From NCBI GenBank assembly GCA_963820525.1, contig CAWGAA010000001.1, forward strand, positions 2,688,001 to 2,752,000: a stretch of 64,000 bases of DNA. Direction: 5' to 3'. The first letter of the stretch is position 1. Every line of letters starts with the position of its first letter. This DNA is from an uncultured Spirochaetota bacterium (lineage in GTDB: Bacteria; Spirochaetota; Spirochaetia; SZUA-6; Fen-1364). This document shows, in pieces, positions 49,615 through 57,205 of the stretch. The position numbers and the translations under genes are program-made. The notes beneath the pieces are model-generated. The model saw only the letters and a program-made list of their open reading frames with translations. It had not been told where the DNA came from and did no database searches.

Positions 49615-51936
49615 CTAGCCCGCGCGGACCGCCGCGTTCCCCACCGACGGGTGGCGCAGGCGCACGGCGCGCGCAGCGTCCACCATGGCCTCGAGGGCCG
49701 GCTTTACTTCCTCCCACCGCCGGGTCTTCAGGCCGCAATCGGGGTTGACCCAAAGCTGCTCGGGCTTGAGCACTTCGAGAGCCTTCTCGAGCAAGCCCTG
49801 GATCTCCTCCGTCGAGGGAACGCGAGGGGAGTGGATGTCGTATACCCCGGGGCCGATCTCGTTAGGGTAGCGAAAATCGCGGAAGACGCCAAGGAGCTCC
49901 ATACGCGAGCGGGCCGATTCGATGGAGATCACGTCGGCGTCCATCGCCGCGATGGAGGGCATGATGGCGTTGAACTCGGAGTAGCACATATGGGTGTGGA
50001 TCTGCGTCGTGTCCTTCACGCCCGAGGAAGCGGCGCGGAATGCCTCCACGGCCCAGGAAAGGTACGCGTTCCACTGCGACTTTCGGAGGGGCAGCCCTTC
50101 GCGGAGGGCCGGCTCGTCGATCTGGATCACCCGGATGCCGGCGCTTTCCAGGTCCCGCACCTCGTCGCGGATGGCGAGCGCGATCTGCCGGCAGGTGAGC
50201 TCTCGCGGCTGGTCGTCGCGCACGAAAGACCACTGGAGGATGGTGACCGGGCCCGTGAGCATGCCCTTCAGCGGCTTTTTCGTCAGGGACTGGGCGAATC
50301 GGGCCCAGCGAACCGTCATGGGCTTCTTTCGTTCCACGTCTCCGTAGATGACGGGAGGCTTCACGCAGCGGGATCCGTAGCTCTGGACCCAGCCGTCCGC
50401 CGTGAATGCGAACCCGGCCAACATCTGGGCGAAGTGCTCCACCATGTCGGTGCGCTCGAACTCCCCGTGCACCAGAACATCGAGGCCGAGCTCCTCCTGG
50501 AACCTGATGGTCCGCTCGATCTCTTCCTTGATGAACGCTTCATACCCTTGCTCGTCGATCTCTCCCGACTTGAGGGCGGCCCGCCGGGAGCGGACCTTTT
50601 GAGTCTGGGGGAAGGAGCCGATCGTGGTTGTCGGAAGGAGAGGGAGATCGAGCACCTTTGCCTGCGCCGCCCGCCGCGCCGGGTATGGGCTGGATCGGCG
50701 GGTCATTTCGGGGGTGAGGGCGGAGACGCGCTCCCGCACGGCCTTCCGTACGGCTCGCTCGGAGCTGCCGCGCGCCCGCCGTACCCTGCGGCTTTCTTCC
50801 AATTCAGCCGCGACGCTTTTGCGGCCCGAGTTGACCGCGCGCGTTATCACGACCACTTCCGAAAGCTTCTGCCTGGCGAAAGCGAGCCATCCCGCAAGCT
50901 CCTCGTCGAGTCCGGTCTCGTGTGAGAGATCCTCGGGACAGTGGAGGAGCGAGCATGAGGTGGCGATAATCGTGTTCTCGCTGCCGAGGGCATTCACGCA
51001 TTTTTCGGCAAGCCCTATGGCGCGCTCCAGGTCGGTCTTCCAGACGTTTCTCCCGTCCACGAGGCCGAGGGAAACAGCGAGGTTCTTCGGCCTCCGTGCG
51101 ATGATCTCCTCGAGCTGCTGCGGCCCCCGCACCAGGTCGACGTGGAGCCCGGCAAAGGGAAGCCGCAGGACGAGATCGAGATTTTCGCGAAGCTCTCCAA
51201 AGTAGGTGGTGAGCAAGAGCTTCGCCTTCGTGGAAGGCAGGAGCCGGGAGTATGCCTCCTGGAAAGCCTTCCGTTTGTTTTCGCCGAGCTCGGTGACGAG
51301 AACCGGCTCGTCGATCTGGACCCACTGCGCCCCCAAGGCGGTGAGGCCTCTCAGCACCTCCTCGTAAACGGGGAGCAGGCGTTCCAGGAATGAAAGGGGG
51401 TTCGTTGATCCATCCGCGCTCTTGGCAAGGGAGAGGAACGTGATCGGCCCCAGGAGGACGGGGCGCGTCTCTATTCCCAGCCTTCCGGCTTCCGAGAAAT
51501 GATCCATGGGCTGGGTGAAGGAAAGCCGGAAAGGCTCGCCGGGGTCCAGCTCCGGCACGATGTAGTGGTAGTTGGTGTCGAACCACTTCGTCATCTCGAG
51601 GGCGGGCACGTCCATGCCGGCGGCCTGGCCTCCCCGGGCCATTGCAAAATACCCGGAAAGAGTGACCCCGCGCGGGAAGGAACCGTAGCGGGCAGGAACG
51701 GCTCCGAGCATTGCGGCCGTGTCCAGCACGTGATCGTAGAGCGAGAAATCCCCGGATGGGATGAAGTCGATGCCGGCGTCGGCTTGAGCTTTCCAGTGGA
51801 GGGCGCGGATGCGCCGAGCCTCCTCGAGCAGGAGCCGCTCATCGGCCTTTGACTGCCAGTAGCCCTCCAAGGCCTTCTTCAGCTCCCGGGCAGGACCGAT
51901 TCGGGGATAACCAAGGACAGAGTTTCGTACAATCAT
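49615..51936 (-). CDS. metE: Cobalamin-independent methionine synthase
   Basis: GYPRIG..RELK, KWFDTNYHY, TTTIGSFPQT, HTHMCY, WVNPDCGLKTR. Confidence 0.98.
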   Translation of the reverse strand: MIVRNSVLGYPRIGPARELKKALEGYWQSKADERLLLEEARRIRALHWKAQADAGIDFIPSGDFSLYDHVLDTAAMLGAVPARYGSFPRGVTLSGYFAMARGGQAAGMDVPALEMTKWFDTNYHYIVPELDPGEPFRLSFTQPMDHFSEAGRLGIETRPVLLGPITFLSLAKSADGSTNPLSFLERLLPVYEEVLRGLTALGAQWVQIDEPVLVTELGENKRKAFQEAYSRLLPSTKAKLLLTTYFGELRENLDLVLRLPFAGLHVDLVRGPQQLEEIIARRPKNLAVSLGLVDGRNVWKTDLERAIGLAEKCVNALGSENTIIATSCSLLHCPEDLSHETGLDEELAGWLAFARQKLSEVVVITRAVNSGRKSVAAELEESRRVRRARGSSERAVRKAVRERVSALTPEMTRRSSPYPARRAAQAKVLDLPLLPTTTIGSFPQTQKVRSRRAALKSGEIDEQGYEAFIKEEIERTIRFQEELGLDVLVHGEFERTDMVEHFAQMLAGFAFTADGWVQSYGSRCVKPPVIYGDVERKKPMTVRWARFAQSLTKKPLKGMLTGPVTILQWSFVRDDQPRELTCRQIALAIRDEVRDLESAGIRVIQIDEPALREGLPLRKSQWNAYLSWAVEAFRAASSGVKDTTQIHTHMCYSEFNAIMPSIAAMDADVISIESARSRMELLGVFRDFRYPNEIGPGVYDIHSPRVPSTEEIQGLLEKALEVLKPEQLWVNPDCGLKTRRWEEVKPALEAMVDAARAVRLRHPSVGNAAVRAG

Positions 51937-51958: not shown

Positions 51959-52004
51959 ACAAGATGTTTTGAAGATAGGAATCGGGTGAGTGGGCGGTCA
52001 AGGG
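51959..52004 (-). promoter_or_regulatory. Putative sigma70-type promoter for metE
   Basis: Minus strand TTGACC-18-TATCTT, about 40 nt upstream of the ATG; too little space for a riboswitch. Confidence 0.4.
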
Positions 52005-52017
52005 CCGGGGGAAAGCT

Positions 52018-52922
52018 TCAGCGCGCGAGGGAGCCGAGGGCTATGGAGTAAAGCTTGTTCTCGGCAGAGTCGGCGCGTGATGTCACGACGATGGGCACCC
52101 GAGCGCCCACCACCAGCCCCGCTTCGACTGCATCGGCGAAGAACACCAGAGACTTGTACAGGATATTGGCTGCCTCGATGTCGGGAGCCAGGAGGATGTC
52201 TGCGCGGCCGGCCAGTTCGCTTGAAATCCCCTTTCGCCGCGCGGCTTCTTCGCTCACCGCGTTGTCCAGGGCGAGGGTCCTTCCACCCTTCCTCCCGTGA
52301 TCTGCCCGCGCTCCGCCATCTTGGAAAGGCATGCCGCATCCAGCGTGGCGGGCATGGAGGGGTTCACGGTCTCAAGGGCGCAGAGCACCGCGACCACGGG
52401 GGATGCGATGCCCAACCTGTGCGCCAGATCGATCGCGTTCTGCGCGATCTCGGCCTTCTGTTGAAGGGTGGGGGCGATCACGAGCGCTGCGTCCGTGATC
52501 ATGAGAAACCTCTCCGCGAACCGCCGTGAGACGGGAACGAGGAACACCCCGACGTGGGACAGTGTCCGTCCGCATCCTATCCCCGCGTTCTTGTCCAGCG
52601 CTGCGTGGAGAAGCTCGGCGGTCTGGAGCATTCCCTTCACCAGCACATCCCCCTCGCCCCGGGCGATGAGGCGGACCGCTTCAGCGGCCGCTTCGCCTTT
52701 CGAGGGAGGCTCCACGATCCGATAGGAGGAGAGCTGGATGCCGAGGCCTGCCGCCGCCGCTTCGATCTCGGGGCGGGAACCGACAAGAACGGGATTCGCG
52801 ATCCCCTTGATGCGCGCCTCTTCCATGGCCTTGAGGATGGACTCATCCGCGGCCTGAGCGACTACCGGGCGGCAGGCGCCCTTCAGCCGCGCGGCTTCCA
52901 GGATCTCGGAGAAGTTTTTCAT
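52018..52922 (-). pseudogene. ptb: Phosphate butyryl/acetyltransferase (Ptb-like) with a -1 frameshift at ~52276 (pseudogene or sequencing error)
   Basis: KG.L.TA, TDAAL.I.P, ETVNP.MP.T.DAA. Adding one C in GGA CCC TCG restores EGPLALDNA, continuous with [13 protein letters not shown] and TSRADS. Confidence 0.85.
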
Positions 52923-52956
52923 GGAAGAGACTATAGCACGGCTCAGGTTGGCGGGC

Positions 52957-52986
52957 AAAATAAAAGCCGGTCTATGCCGGCTTTTA
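52957..52986 (-). terminator. Intrinsic terminator
   Basis: TAAAAGCCGG-N6-CCGGCTTTTA stem with U-tracts on both strands. Confidence 0.8.
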
Positions 52987-53064
52987 CGAAACCCGACCAC
53001 GTCTGCCGCCTTTGGCGACGACGGGCTCGGATTCATTGTTTGAAGAGGGCAATCCCTCATCCAT
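52957..53064 (-). ncRNA. Candidate structured small RNA (or leaderless 26-aa sORF) with its own promoter and terminator
   Basis: TTGACA-17-TACATT promoter (53098-53070), two hairpins that fold better on the minus strand (G-U pairs), then AAAAGCCGG-N6-CCGGCTTTTATTTT. Confidence 0.55.
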
Positions 53065-53129
53065 CAATCAATGTATCCCCGCGGACGGCTGCTGTCAAGG
53101 GAAAGCAGCATCTCGATGACCGCCCTCGA

Positions 53130-53146
53130 TGCCGGCGGTCGGACTT
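53130..53146 (-). repeat. 17-bp exact copy of the tRNA-Leu 3' end (att-like site)
   Basis: TGCCGGCGGTCGGACTT is identical to 57121-57137. Confidence 0.85.
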
Positions 53147-53213: not shown

Positions 53214-54152
53214 ATGAAAATAGACCGTCTGCTCTCCATCGTTGTCATGATGCTCACTAGAGACCGGATCCCGGCCGCGGAGTTGGCCAGGAGGTTCGAG
53301 GTGTCGGTGCGCACGATCTATCGCGACGTCGACGCCATCAACCTGGCGGGAATTCCCATTGTCTCCTTCCAGGGAAACAGCGGCGGGCTGGGAATCCACG
53401 AGAGCTACAAGCTTGATCGCCAGGTGCTCACGCTTTCGGATATGGTGTCCATCCTTTCGGCATTGCGCAGCATCTCGGCGGCTTTCGAGTCGACGGAGCT
53501 GGAATCGGCCCTGGATAAGGTGCAGAGCCTCGTGCCAAAGGAAAAACGAACGGAAGTGGACGAGCTGCAGGACCAGATCGTTGTGGACATCCTCCCATGG
53601 GGGTATCGCGCGCGGGAGAAAGAGCTCATGAAGGACCTTCATCGGGCGCTCCGCGGCAAGCGATTGACCGGCATTACGTACCGGTCATACGGCGGGCAGG
53701 CAACCGCCCGCGTCGTGGAGCCCATGACACTGGTGTACAAAGGCTCGGGATGGTATCTCTACGGGTTCTGCCGGATGCGCGCGGATTACCGGTTATTCCG
53801 GGTTTCGCGAATTCAGGAGCTCGAGATCAAGGGAGAGACATTCACGCGCAAGTCCAGATCGTACGTCCGGTTTTCCAACCCGTCCATCCCGATGAAGACC
53901 ATGGCCCTCACCCTCAGGTGCTCGCCGCGGGTCGCCGCCTCTTTTGAAGACTACCTGGAGCCCGAGAGGATCGTTCCTGACGGCGAGAAGGTGCGCGTAA
54001 CGGCGGAATGGCCGGACGACGCATGGACGTATTCGATGCTGCTGGGCATGGGCGCGGATGCCGAAGTACTCGAGCCGCAAGAGGTGAGGCGGGAGCTCTC
54101 GCGCAGGGTTCGCCTGATGGCGGAAAAATACCATGACGATTTTCAAACCTGA
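53214..54152 (+). CDS. YafY-family HTH-WYL-WCX transcriptional regulator
   Basis: MKIDRLLSI, FEVSVRTIYRD, R.VEP..L, WYLYGFC..R..FRVSRI, VLEP..VR. Confidence 0.95.
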   Translation: MKIDRLLSIVVMMLTRDRIPAAELARRFEVSVRTIYRDVDAINLAGIPIVSFQGNSGGLGIHESYKLDRQVLTLSDMVSILSALRSISAAFESTELESALDKVQSLVPKEKRTEVDELQDQIVVDILPWGYRAREKELMKDLHRALRGKRLTGITYRSYGGQATARVVEPMTLVYKGSGWYLYGFCRMRADYRLFRVSRIQELEIKGETFTRKSRSYVRFSNPSIPMKTMALTLRCSPRVAASFEDYLEPERIVPDGEKVRVTAEWPDDAWTYSMLLGMGADAEVLEPQEVRRELSRRVRLMAEKYHDDFQT

Positions 54153-54182
54153 CATACCCCCGTCACAAGGGCGCGTTATGAT
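54150..54182 (+). promoter_or_regulatory. Putative WYL-regulator operator/promoter
   Basis: TGAC-N8-GTCA palindrome (54150-54165); CGTCAC-N10-TATGAT spacing. Confidence 0.6.
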
Positions 54183-54232
54183 TGGCCTCATATCAGGGGC
54201 GATCGAGCGGTCCGCCCCGGGAGGTTGTTGAA

Positions 54233-54889
54233 ATGAAAGCGTTGCTGATTGTCGGTATCGTGGTCGTGGCGCTCGTCCTGGCAGGCGGCGTCGTTTTTCT
54301 CCTGTTCATGAGAGGGCCCGATTTATCAAGGTATGAATCGCTTCGCGACCCACGGATATCCGCGCGAAAGAACGTGAGAATGATCGAAGTTGCGTTCCGG
54401 GGAAAACCGGATAAAGTTCTCATGAGCGCGTTCGGCCTTCTTTTCAAGACATATTTCGCGCTGCCGGGCGTGCCCAAGGGGCCGGGCCAGCCCGCGCCCA
54501 TCGCCCGCTTCAAGGGGTTCGAGGGTCTGCCGAAGGATCCCGCGGAACGCGCCAAGGCGCTCGAGGCCTTTTCCGACCGGGATTGGCAGGGAGCGGTCGG
54601 GCTGCCGGTTCCCGAAACCGTCACGTCTCTGCCGCGCGTGGAGAACACGACCCAGTTCGAGGTGAAGTTGACCACCTGGGAATACGGCGAGGTGGCGGAG
54701 ATACTCCACGTCGGCAGGTACGAGACCGAGGTTCCGACAATCGCGAGGCTTGACGAGTACATCCAAAGCCAAGGCTACGCCATCGCGGGCGAACATGAAG
54801 AAGAGTACCTGCGTGGGCCCGGCGTGCCGATGGCCAAGCCGGAGAGCTACTACACGATCATCCGGTATCCCGTGAAGAGAACGCGCTAG
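54233..54889 (+). CDS. Membrane-anchored GyrI-like small-molecule-binding protein
   Basis: N-terminal TM; AEILHVGRYETE..TI..L..YI...GY...GEHEEEYL..P..TIIRYPV. Confidence 0.88.
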   Translation: MKALLIVGIVVVALVLAGGVVFLLFMRGPDLSRYESLRDPRISARKNVRMIEVAFRGKPDKVLMSAFGLLFKTYFALPGVPKGPGQPAPIARFKGFEGLPKDPAERAKALEAFSDRDWQGAVGLPVPETVTSLPRVENTTQFEVKLTTWEYGEVAEILHVGRYETEVPTIARLDEYIQSQGYAIAGEHEEEYLRGPGVPMAKPESYYTIIRYPVKRTR

Positions 54890-55594: not shown

Positions 55595-55643
55595 TCGGAC
55601 TTGAACCGACACGGAGGTTGCCCCCCCACCAGATTGAGTCTGG
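55595..55643 (-). repeat. Degenerate partial copy of tRNA-Leu (anticodon arm to T-arm; att-like)
   Basis: Matches 57130-57179 except for one extra C and a 2-nt deletion in the anticodon loop. Confidence 0.9.
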
Positions 55644-55713: not shown

Positions 55714-56904
55714 TTAGTATAGCTTTAGCTCAAGCAATAGTACGTTTCCATCTTTTATCGGCAGGCGATAGAGAGTGGCATGATAGTTGTTGCTATATCC
55801 AACGTCAATTTCCGCATTACTGATAAGCAACGGGATATTCTTGAGGGCGATTTTTACGCTATAACCGAATACGCCTTGCGGAAAAATATCTTTCGAATAT
55901 GACAGTCCGCCATTCAAAGCGATGCCAAAATGCCTCGTTTTATTCTCATTCGACAACTCGTTTTTGTATTGTTGTCCTTTATCTCCAAACAGATAGAGGG
56001 AAATATCGGCGACAATGTAATCCAGGTTTTGCTTGTCGAGGTTGAAATAGAGCTCGTAGCTGAATTTGATGAAATCAAGTGGAGAAATAGCATAATGCCT
56101 ATATCCCAGTTGTTTGATATTCATGAAATCGAAGTAATTAAATCCGGGGACAAGCAATCCCAAAAAATCTCGCACATTGATATCCAATCCCGGAATGAAT
56201 AGTCTGAGCAAGTCGGCAACACTGAATTCATACCTGAACTCAAAAGCCTTGAATACGCTATCTTCCGTATCATAGACTATTTTGGAAGTGAAGCCGAATA
56301 AGAATAAATTCGCGAAGGCCTCCGTCTGCTCCTCTTCCGAGGTAACGAACCTGTTTATCTCATTATCAAAGGTATAAGAAAAGTATTCATTGTTATTGAC
56401 GTCTGAGGTTATTATTGGCAACCACCTCTTTATAAAGCCGCAATCAAGAGCAAAATTGTATTCACTCTCTTTGATTATTAGACAATAGATGCCATAATCA
56501 TAGCTGAAAACATCGTTATGACTGTCTGTCCAAATATTGTTGGCCAGCGCAATTCCGTTTCCCGCGGCAAAAATAGCGAGGCTGAAGGAGCTCGTTAGAT
56601 CAATACTCCAATAGAGACATCCGGTATATTGGCCCAATTCAAAATTTTTATTTCCTTGGGTCGTTGGCACTATAAATCGAGTATTAAGGATAGTCACCAG
56701 ATCGATATCAAAAAAGAACTTGTAACCATTGGCAGTTATTTCAGTATTATAATCATCAAAAGTCTGAATGATGTCGAGTGAAGTTTCCGATATCAATTTA
56801 AAACTTTCCGGTATTATCGCCAAATCTCCCATGAGATAGTGCGGATTTAGAAAAGCGAATAGGATGGATGATATAATACACATTTTATGCCGCATAATAT
56901 GCAC
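55714..56904 (-). CDS. AT-rich hypothetical exported protein, possible outer-membrane beta-barrel; start uncertain
   Basis: Signal-like N-terminus, aromatic alternating strands, C-terminal LLLELKLY; composition atypical of the window. Confidence 0.6.
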   Translation of the reverse strand: MHIMRHKMCIISSILFAFLNPHYLMGDLAIIPESFKLISETSLDIIQTFDDYNTEITANGYKFFFDIDLVTILNTRFIVPTTQGNKNFELGQYTGCLYWSIDLTSSFSLAIFAAGNGIALANNIWTDSHNDVFSYDYGIYCLIIKESEYNFALDCGFIKRWLPIITSDVNNNEYFSYTFDNEINRFVTSEEEQTEAFANLFLFGFTSKIVYDTEDSVFKAFEFRYEFSVADLLRLFIPGLDINVRDFLGLLVPGFNYFDFMNIKQLGYRHYAISPLDFIKFSYELYFNLDKQNLDYIVADISLYLFGDKGQQYKNELSNENKTRHFGIALNGGLSYSKDIFPQGVFGYSVKIALKNIPLLISNAEIDVGYSNNYHATLYRLPIKDGNVLLLELKLY

Positions 56905-57120
56905 TCGCTGAACAGCTCACAATCTTATTGCACAACCGAACTTCATGCGCAATTAGCGATGATTATAGATCCCAAATGACTGTTGTCAATTCTTCATTCG
57001 GGGCGAACCATGATTGAAGTAATATTCCCAAGTATCAGACACATGATTTCGTCTCAGACTGCAGTTCAAGGCCGGTCTATTGATAGTTGCTAGTAAGTAT
57101 TTAATCTGTAGGTAATTATG

Positions 57121-57205
57121 TGCCGGCGGTCGGACTTGAACCGACACGGAGGTTGCCCCCCACCAGATTTTGAGTCTGGCATGTCTGCCATTTCATCACG
57201 CCGGC
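57121..57205 (-). tRNA. tRNA-Leu(CAA)
   Basis: GCCGGCG/CGCCGGC acceptor stem, CCAGA-CTCAAAA-TCTGG anticodon arm, long variable arm, GGTTCAAGTCC T-arm; CCA not encoded. Confidence 0.95.

Follow-up and report, generated by a model that had tools for sequence, protein, structure and literature searches.

A probable free-standing small RNA gene in an uncultured spirochaete and its putative relatives across the class

The DNA analyzed here is a stretch of 64,000 nucleotides, hereafter called the window, from the genome of an uncultured Spirochaetota bacterium (assembly GCA_963820525.1, contig CAWGAA010000001.1, positions 2,688,001 to 2,752,000), and the element in question lies on its minus strand between window positions 52957 and 53064. 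This segment is probably a free-standing non-coding small RNA (sRNA) gene, equipped with its own promoter and its own terminator, whose product we infer to act in trans. The RNA family that it represents is found neither in Rfam 15 nor in the literature searched, and is in kind an ordinary free-standing sRNA gene. The elements of the transcription unit, given in window coordinates, are the following.

53093..53098, minus strand: −35 box TTGACA, of which TTGAC is kept in 34 out of the 35 loci of the window's family (f1, wetland spirochaetes) that have enough upstream sequence
53070..53075, minus strand: −10 box TACATT, 17 nucleotides (nt) past the −35 box, kept as TAnnnT in 34 out of 35 loci
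52957..53064, minus strand: predicted sRNA transcript of 108 nt, with its 5' end placed from the promoter, and a full-length covariance-model match
53041..53063, minus strand: hairpin 1 as seen in the fold, with a G-rich 5' arm, a C/U-rich 3' arm and the loop AUUG
53035..53040, minus strand: unpaired linker between hairpins 1 and 2, AAACAA in the window and CACCA-like in most of the family
52989..53034, minus strand: hairpin 2, long and irregular, seen in the fold and by covariation
52957..52987, minus strand: intrinsic terminator as seen in the fold, with an 11-bp stem, the core AAGCCGG...CCGGCUU and a U tail, the hairpin itself covering 52960-52987

The TTGACA-17-TACATT promoter scores 10 out of 12 in a consensus scan, and two promoter-like sites are present between positions 52000 and 54000, against 0.3±0.5 in 50 shuffled sequences. 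The three hairpins begin five bases past the −10 box on the minus strand, and the 110-nt minus-strand sequence folds at −53.7 kcal/mol (z = −5.8, a value equalled by none of 200 shuffled sequences), the fold of the opposite strand being weaker (−43.8 kcal/mol, z = −4.4). Sequence conservation in hairpin 2 concerns its base (UGAAUCCG / CGGRUUUC), and the upper part covaries. A preliminary description of this DNA had placed the promoter, hairpin 1, the irregular hairpin 2 and the terminator on the minus strand, and all of them are found there at the coordinates that it gave; the main evidence that this arrangement did not arise by chance is its conservation and covariation in relatives.

BLAST analysis of 61 related genomes matches only the 3' ~45 nt of the RNA, in nine genomes including the window's own, and the flanks of these nine matches exhibit an identical layout of promoter, hairpin 1, linker, hairpin 2 and terminator. 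A covariance model built from a MAFFT alignment of nine f1 copies (R1) reports exactly one full-length copy in 16 out of 25 f1 genomes, and all seven f1 genomes with at least 90% completeness and at most 5% contamination are positive. The window copy (G000:C1:2740957-2741064, G000 being the window's own genome) scores 85.3 bits with R1, 72.5 bits with R2, the model to which two rows from families f6 and f3 were added, and 68.3 bits with R3, which was retrained on 34 diverse copies. Among metagenome contigs chosen by a sequence pattern, 31 loci out of 31 are full-length model matches. A scan of contigs for an 18-nt motif returns at least 120 loci, 80 of which were searched with the model and yield seven full-length true copies, the remaining 40 motif loci (~600 nt each) having been left out of the model search. 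Copies are spread over many families of one class, and the named records with true copies are labelled as Spirochaetia, Spirochaetota or Spirochaetaceae metagenome-assembled genomes. A full-length copy (94.7 bits) also occurs on a 1587-nt contig (L061) from a bin labelled Micrarchaeota, and this contig is probably misbinned.

Regarding the promoter of these f1 copies, a TTGAC-17/18-TAnnnT motif ends 4-7 nt before the model match at 34 out of 35 loci, with a spacer of 17 nt in 33 loci and of 18 nt in one, while the 35th locus reads CTGACG instead of TTGAC. The −10 box occurs in 13 sequence variants and is preceded by TG in 18 loci. Since the position of the promoter is constant while its letters drift, it provides good evidence for an independent transcription unit.

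The helices are supported by compensatory changes. RNAalifold analysis of a MAFFT alignment of nine copies, unfitted to any model, reports 36 pairs, 10 of which carry changes on both sides. In alignment A3, which comprises 38 distinct copies, 93.2% of the cells pair, as compared with 32-50% when the partners are slid by 1-3 columns, and double changes affect 14 out of 36 pairs, against 6.9±1.5 in shuffled alignments, none of 500 shuffles reaching the observed value. Alignment A7 comprises 34 copies from 14 families and brings together short forms, such as the RNA of the window, and a long form from other orders; 88.6% of its cells pair, and double changes are found in 28 out of 36 pairs, against 19.0±1.8 in shuffles. 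Five of the eight pairs of hairpin 1 are changed on both sides in A3, and all eight in A7. The polarity of its arms nonetheless remains constant across the families of A7, with purines in the 5' arm and pyrimidines in the 3' arm: pair 10-25 is GC in 24 copies, AU in two and UA in two, and pair 11-24 is GC in 24 with three others. Pair 38-86 is GU in 30 copies and GC in eight (A3), and the minus strand is favoured by such G-U pairs at conserved positions as well as by the poorer fold of the opposite strand. Lastly, all 34 aligned copies from the 14 families carry the same terminator core AAGCCGG...CCGGCUU, an invariance that must be due in part to ascertainment, since the models and the search pattern reward those letters. 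The exact terminator sequence is found once in the 5.05-Mb genome.

The segment also contains an open reading frame (ORF), which the preliminary description had correctly located and put forward as a leaderless gene for a peptide of 26 amino acids.

52984..53064, minus strand: 26-codon frame MDEGLPSSNNESEPVVAKGGRRGRVS*, judged not to be a gene

In favour of a leaderless mRNA encoding MDEGLPSSNNESEPVVAKGGRRGRVS, an AUG stands at the predicted first base and the stop comes shortly ahead of the terminator; translated in this frame, some relatives give M-E/D-R-G-x-V-P-P-P-P, and the long form of other orders carries a Pro-Pro mini-ORF. However, across the 36 family copies conservation is lacking for start, frame and stop alike. 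Nucleotide 1 opens an AUG, GUG or UUG codon in 20 out of 36 copies (AUG in seven, GUG or UUG in 13), and four copies, namely the window's and those of three relatives, have a 26-27-codon frame whose stop precedes the terminator. In the remaining copies the frame reads through the terminator or stops early, and one copy is devoid of any ORF. The 'PPPP' stretches of the relatives fall in the C-rich strand of a stem that covaries, a Shine-Dalgarno site is missing, and the window's own peptide is devoid of Pro-Pro. The peptide is therefore very improbable, and the 26-codon frame of the window should not be annotated as a gene.

Comparison with known RNA families returns little. At the gathering score, Rfam 15 reports no match for the window RNA, and 19 related loci likewise give no Rfam match. 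With E-values up to 10, the best hits are rsmX (18.9 bits, cut-off 56) and RmaA (19.7 bits, cut-off 57), both of which lean on the terminator, and even at this level none of the SAM, SAH, cobalamin or other riboswitch families is matched, which does not favour the riboswitch that had been considered earlier. The RNA, which the preliminary description could not match by eye to that of the signal recognition particle (SRP), is not the SRP RNA: the RF00169 match of this genome falls elsewhere (C1:2603938-2604036, 65.6 bits). The 6S RNA (RF00013) was also rejected as a candidate, the window RNA being 108 nt long with three separate hairpins, as compared with ~180 nt and one long hairpin with a central bubble; RF00013 has no match in the whole genome, a negative of limited reach as the control found 6S RNA in 5 out of 14 reference genomes. 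A CsrA-sequestering RNA was rejected too, as rsmX stays below its cut-off and the GGA-like triplets lie in stems and covary. The genome G000 possesses CsrA, EF-P and the SRP RNA, and an Hfq (PF17209) gene returns no match in it. The literature searched (full text, without supplements) holds no description of this RNA or of a spirochaete RNA with a Pro-Pro mini-ORF. The novel sRNA that the preliminary description had listed among its options is thus the one that is supported, by a conserved promoter and terminator of its own, covarying helices, single-copy occurrence and the lack of an Rfam family; the family could join RNA family libraries.

Beyond f1, weaker matches are found in the window's order in families f6 (5 out of 21 genomes) and f3 (one genome), hairpin 1 being immediately preceded in each case by a TTGAYA-17-TAnnnT promoter. 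In f7, another family of this order, none of 24 genomes gives a match, a weak negative as 150 of ~3000 first-look candidates per genome were scored. In a sample of the class, 23 out of 151 genomes are positive with R2 and 51 out of 151 with R3; several carriers are complete genomes (e.g. G120, G190 and G230), and some 70 distinct copies are available in all. The first search of the class gave 21 loci, 16 of which were judged true and five (L194, L196, L197, L200 and L204) rejected as unrelated terminators, one such locus lying in genome G164. In the sample of the phylum outside the class, four matches at E ~1e-5 were all rejected as coding-region ends or as a tRNA followed by a terminator. As such spurious matches do occur, E-values of ~1e-5 alone do not prove membership. 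The short-form models find the long-form loci over their full length with E ~1e-6 to 1e-4 per genome, and the class-level loci are validated because they carry a Pro-Pro module that lies outside anything the model knows.

The long form shares with the short form a 3' domain made up of hairpin 1, a hairpin 2 base of the (G)UGAGAUC type and the AAGCCGG...CCGGCUU terminator. In most orders this domain is preceded by ~110 nt that contain a strong Shine-Dalgarno site and a 9-22-codon M-x(0-5)-Pro-Pro frame; a promoter and a ~55-nt leader stand ahead of the Shine-Dalgarno site, and the mini-ORF is located about 45-110 nt upstream of the model match (L187-L224). The predicted long-form RNA would thus measure ~200-230 nt. 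The Pro-Pro frame is present at 26 out of 30 inspected loci, in 11 families; among the four others, Leu-Pro occurs in one, a different small frame in another, and no frame in the remaining two. CCA (14 loci) and CCG (12) serve as first Pro codon, and CCU (19), CCA (four) and CCG (three) as the second, so that the first two letters are fixed while the third varies, the pattern expected of a translated codon. Beyond Pro-Pro, the peptide lacks conservation. The second Pro codon is followed by a GC-rich hairpin, which begins at a distance of 10 nt in 21 out of 26 loci, of 9 nt in three and of 11 nt in one; at the last locus the hairpin has a large loop and was missed by the script, and by eye it starts at 10 nt. 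The inner pair of this hairpin is changed on both sides in 9 out of 15 sequences. Another candidate, a hairpin that hides the Shine-Dalgarno site by pairing it with the Pro codons (three pairs), was rejected as too short and because the U that this pairing would require at the middle position of the first Pro codon pair never occurs. Long-form loci usually lie just after uvrC, and the next gene is variable and often convergent: holA (4 out of 21 tested), URO-D, adenylate cyclase, Era, amylase, DEAD helicase and more. Since this next gene varies, the long form likewise stands as an independent unit rather than as an operon leader. In the long forms of f33 and f9 (e.g. L187, L205), a conserved GAGGUAA(A/U) stretch is located between promoter and mini-ORF, followed in f33 by an AUG and a frame of 2-6 codons; the stretch could represent either another very short frame or a structural feature.

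In the window copy the promoter stands directly before hairpin 1 and leaves no room for a Shine-Dalgarno/Pro-Pro module. A regular expression for the 5' module, run elsewhere in the window genome, returns six matches at four places, none of them credible, the most module-like place lying inside a long ORF. No such RNA is found after the uvrC gene of this genome (G000:C1:2655691-2657100), which abuts the 3' end of an apparent convergent gene. We conclude from these comparisons that the window RNA would represent a short form in which a new promoter drives only the 3' domain, a state common to f1, f6 and f3. The missing 5' module and the move away from the uvrC locus might also suggest a decaying, functionless remnant of the long-form RNA. 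This is most unlikely, since the RNA is present as a single copy in all seven high-quality f1 genomes, with a conserved promoter and compensatory changes, and since promoter-bearing short forms also exist in f6 and f3.

If we take the window RNA as a trans-acting sRNA, its working can be pictured as follows. A strong sigma-70-type promoter would drive an RNA of ~108 nt, ended by the intrinsic terminator, and the 5'-terminal hairpin and the terminator would protect its ends. The 3' arm of hairpin 1 together with the linker (mostly CCUC...CACCA; CCCUCUUCAAACAA in the window) would pair with purine-rich ribosome-binding regions of mRNAs. Given an sRNA, such base pairing is the mechanism that we prefer, tentatively, its chance being somewhat below even; the absence of an Hfq match and the polarity of the hairpin 1 arms were counted in its favour. 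The same sRNA may instead act by binding a protein, or by its shape, through the base of hairpin 2 (UGAAUCCG / CGGAUUUC) and the terminator stem. Taken by itself this is doubtful, but recognition of the invariant stems by a protein ranks just below base pairing and is nearly as likely. It fits a terminator core that is kept letter for letter while every other helix covaries, a terminator that occurs once in the genome, so that it is no generic terminator of the organism, and an unpaired linker that is not conserved between families; moreover, the CsrA gene is present and the best weak Rfam match is rsmX. Yet the copies do not preserve GGA, the motif recognized by CsrA, the G's and A's that might form it change together with the bases they pair with and are hence structural, the rsmX match owes its score mostly to the terminator, the invariance of terminator and hairpin 2 is partly one of ascertainment, and no candidate protein was found.

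Several points weigh against a trans-acting sRNA, or against base pairing as its mechanism, and they are gathered here. The transcript, its ends and its level are predictions; the 18 listed sequencing runs that contain the stretch are all DNA metagenomes (wetland, sediment, soil), with no RNA run among them. A simple terminator scan of the region does not list the terminator, which is plain in the fold with its U tail. Because alignments A3, A4 and A7 are fitted to the model, their pairing counts are inflated, and the relatives are kin rather than independent samples. Some of the letters of hairpin 2 and of the terminator are prescribed by the pattern used on the metagenome contigs, so that invariance there is partly built in. 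The homology of the short and long forms rests on modest model E-values and is probable. Regarding base pairing, the linker is moderately conserved within the family but not between families, being A-rich elsewhere, and the parts that never vary, the hairpin 2 base and the terminator stem, all lie inside helices. Such invariant helices are no less compatible with protein recognition or alternative pairing than with a linear seed. No target of base pairing was found; for the start of ptb, the gene downstream in the window, duplex energies with the sRNA at 16 loci are no better than those with shuffled targets (z −1.9 to +2.3), which is evidence neither way as the method ignores accessibility.

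For the long form, a coupling of the sRNA domain to translation can be envisaged. A ribosome pausing on Pro-Pro would halt with its leading edge against the GC hairpin 10 nt downstream. The 10-nt spacing would match the ribosome footprint, the leading edge of a ribosome paused on Pro-Pro standing at the foot of the hairpin. The length of the pause would depend on EF-P or on the supply of prolyl-tRNA, and the pause would set the folding, the termination or the 5'-end protection of the sRNA domain, and hence its level. The terminator stem shares the letters GCCGG/CCGGC with the mini-ORF hairpin, and the two could swap partners. In the window's order, the sensor would have been discarded and the bare sRNA domain would be made from a strong promoter, its end protected by the extended 5' hairpin. 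That the whole family is a spirochaete-wide, translation-coupled sRNA device, with the long form ancestral, is a possible but rather unlikely generalization.

The neighbourhood of the RNA gene in the window comprises the following features.

52018..52922, minus strand: PTA_PTB (phosphate acetyl/butyryl transferase) gene, a neighbour outside the RNA
52930..52958, minus strand: ptb promoter-like site TTGCCC-17-TATAGT, with TG before the −10 box, overlapping the U tail of the sRNA
53130..53146, no strand assigned: 17-nt direct repeat, att-like end of inserted DNA, equal to 57121-57137 at the 3' end of tRNA-Leu

Downstream of the RNA, PTA_PTB, metE and a homocysteine S-methyltransferase/methylenetetrahydrofolate reductase fusion follow on the minus strand, the ptb-metE-yitJ order that had been noted before. 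This position had led to the proposal of an attenuator or riboswitch for the methionine genes, that is, a cis-acting leader governing read-through into ptb, metE and yitJ. Such a leader would fit a terminator located directly upstream of ptb, and also the recurrence of ptb on the same strand, 22-167 nt past the terminator, at 16 out of 36 distinct f1 loci that belong to three genera and differ in their upstream genes. However, at least 18 loci have other downstream genes (Sir2 in three; radical SAM, URO-D-like, SDR, histidine kinase or GntR in others), two loci having too little downstream sequence, and the next gene in other orders is often convergent or unrelated, as described for the long form. 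Moreover, ptb has a promoter-like site of its own between the terminator and its start codon, no conserved antiterminator pairing is seen, no riboswitch family is matched, and Rfam reports nothing between positions 51900 and 52300. A cis-acting leader is therefore improbable, and the attenuator or riboswitch for the methionine genes is not retained. The ptb promoter-like site ends 8 nt before the start codon, so that the ptb mRNA would be almost leaderless in the window genome; at the same place, relatives exhibit TATACT and a GGAG ribosome-binding site. The PTA_PTB frame shifts near position 52275, residues 1-212 of a relative matching one frame and residues 213-297 another, which reflects either a pseudogene or an assembly error.

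Upstream of the RNA, the f1 loci vary as well, with UxaE at 11 loci, glycogen phosphorylase at six and a tRNA in genome G004. In the window, the 17-nt repeat at 53130-53146 adjoins the unit, which accordingly lies just outside the tRNA-Leu att-like repeat, as stated in the preliminary description. The tRNA-Leu(CAA) itself is located at 57120-57205, and the inserted DNA now parts the RNA gene from the tRNA. The ancestral adjacency of the two that had been proposed is supported by G004, in which the RNA begins 9 nt past the 3' end of the tRNA. A second, longer (~50 nt) fragment of tRNA-Leu is present at 55595-55643, and the two att-like repeats suggest that two DNA insertions occurred in tandem at this tRNA. 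Inside the inserted DNA, an HTH-WYL-WCX regulator (53214-54152) is located upstream of the RNA in divergent orientation. The same inner stretch encodes a protein (54182-54889) with a weak, sub-threshold GyrI-like match. The 396-codon ORF beside the tRNA (55714-56904) has no Pfam match and is not called an integrase.

To our knowledge, spirochaetes other than Borrelia and Leptospira have yielded very few regulatory RNAs, and no class-wide spirochaete regulatory RNA was found in the literature searched. An RNA that is single-copy and related to one in 51 out of 151 sampled genomes of the class makes a well-defined gene for knockout in culturable members. Among known systems, RsaE/RoxS of Firmicutes are trans-acting sRNAs with C-rich motifs that possess their own promoter and Rho-independent terminator. 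The window RNA resembles them as a free-standing unit of ~100 nt with several hairpins, a C-rich stretch able in principle to pair with Shine-Dalgarno sequences, an intrinsic terminator and conservation within a lineage. It differs from them in that there is neither sequence nor model similarity, that its C-rich stretch lies mostly in a stem and not in loops, and that no Hfq gene was found. With rsmX/RsmY-Z (RF02144) it shares a similar length, several hairpins and a terminator, and csrA is present in the genome; in contrast, it scores 18.9 bits vs 56 (E = 0.37) and is devoid of repeated GGA motifs in loops. TD-1 and TD-2 are presented as candidate structured RNAs of spirochaetes with 29 and 36 representatives, respectively (PMC1950547). 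Compared with these, the window RNA is single-copy, and the Rfam scans report no such match, which is informative only if both families are in Rfam 15.

The long form invites two further comparisons. The rnTrpL/peTrpL RNA of Sinorhizobium is reported to be an attenuator RNA that, once released at the terminator, acts in trans, and its leader peptide to be functional (10.1101/606483). Both rnTrpL and the long form consist of a promoter, a short leader frame, hairpins and an intrinsic terminator as a unit of their own, and rnTrpL offers a precedent for a leader-type RNA that acts in trans. Unlike in rnTrpL, the codons that matter in the long form would be Pro-Pro and not Trp, no biosynthetic operon follows, no sequence similarity was seen, and the window copy is frameless. 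MgtL and SecM are proline-based stalling leaders that control mgtA and secA (PMC12856214), and they too are no relatives by sequence. The likeness of the long form to them is that its tiny frame conserves only the prolines (26 out of 30 loci), with an RNA structure at a fixed distance, and the difference is that it has no consistent downstream gene; the likeness does not apply to the short form of the window. With its minimal Pro-Pro frame and a hairpin at a fixed distance of 10 nt, the long form looks like a natural reporter of proline pausing, coupled to an sRNA and not to a gene further downstream.

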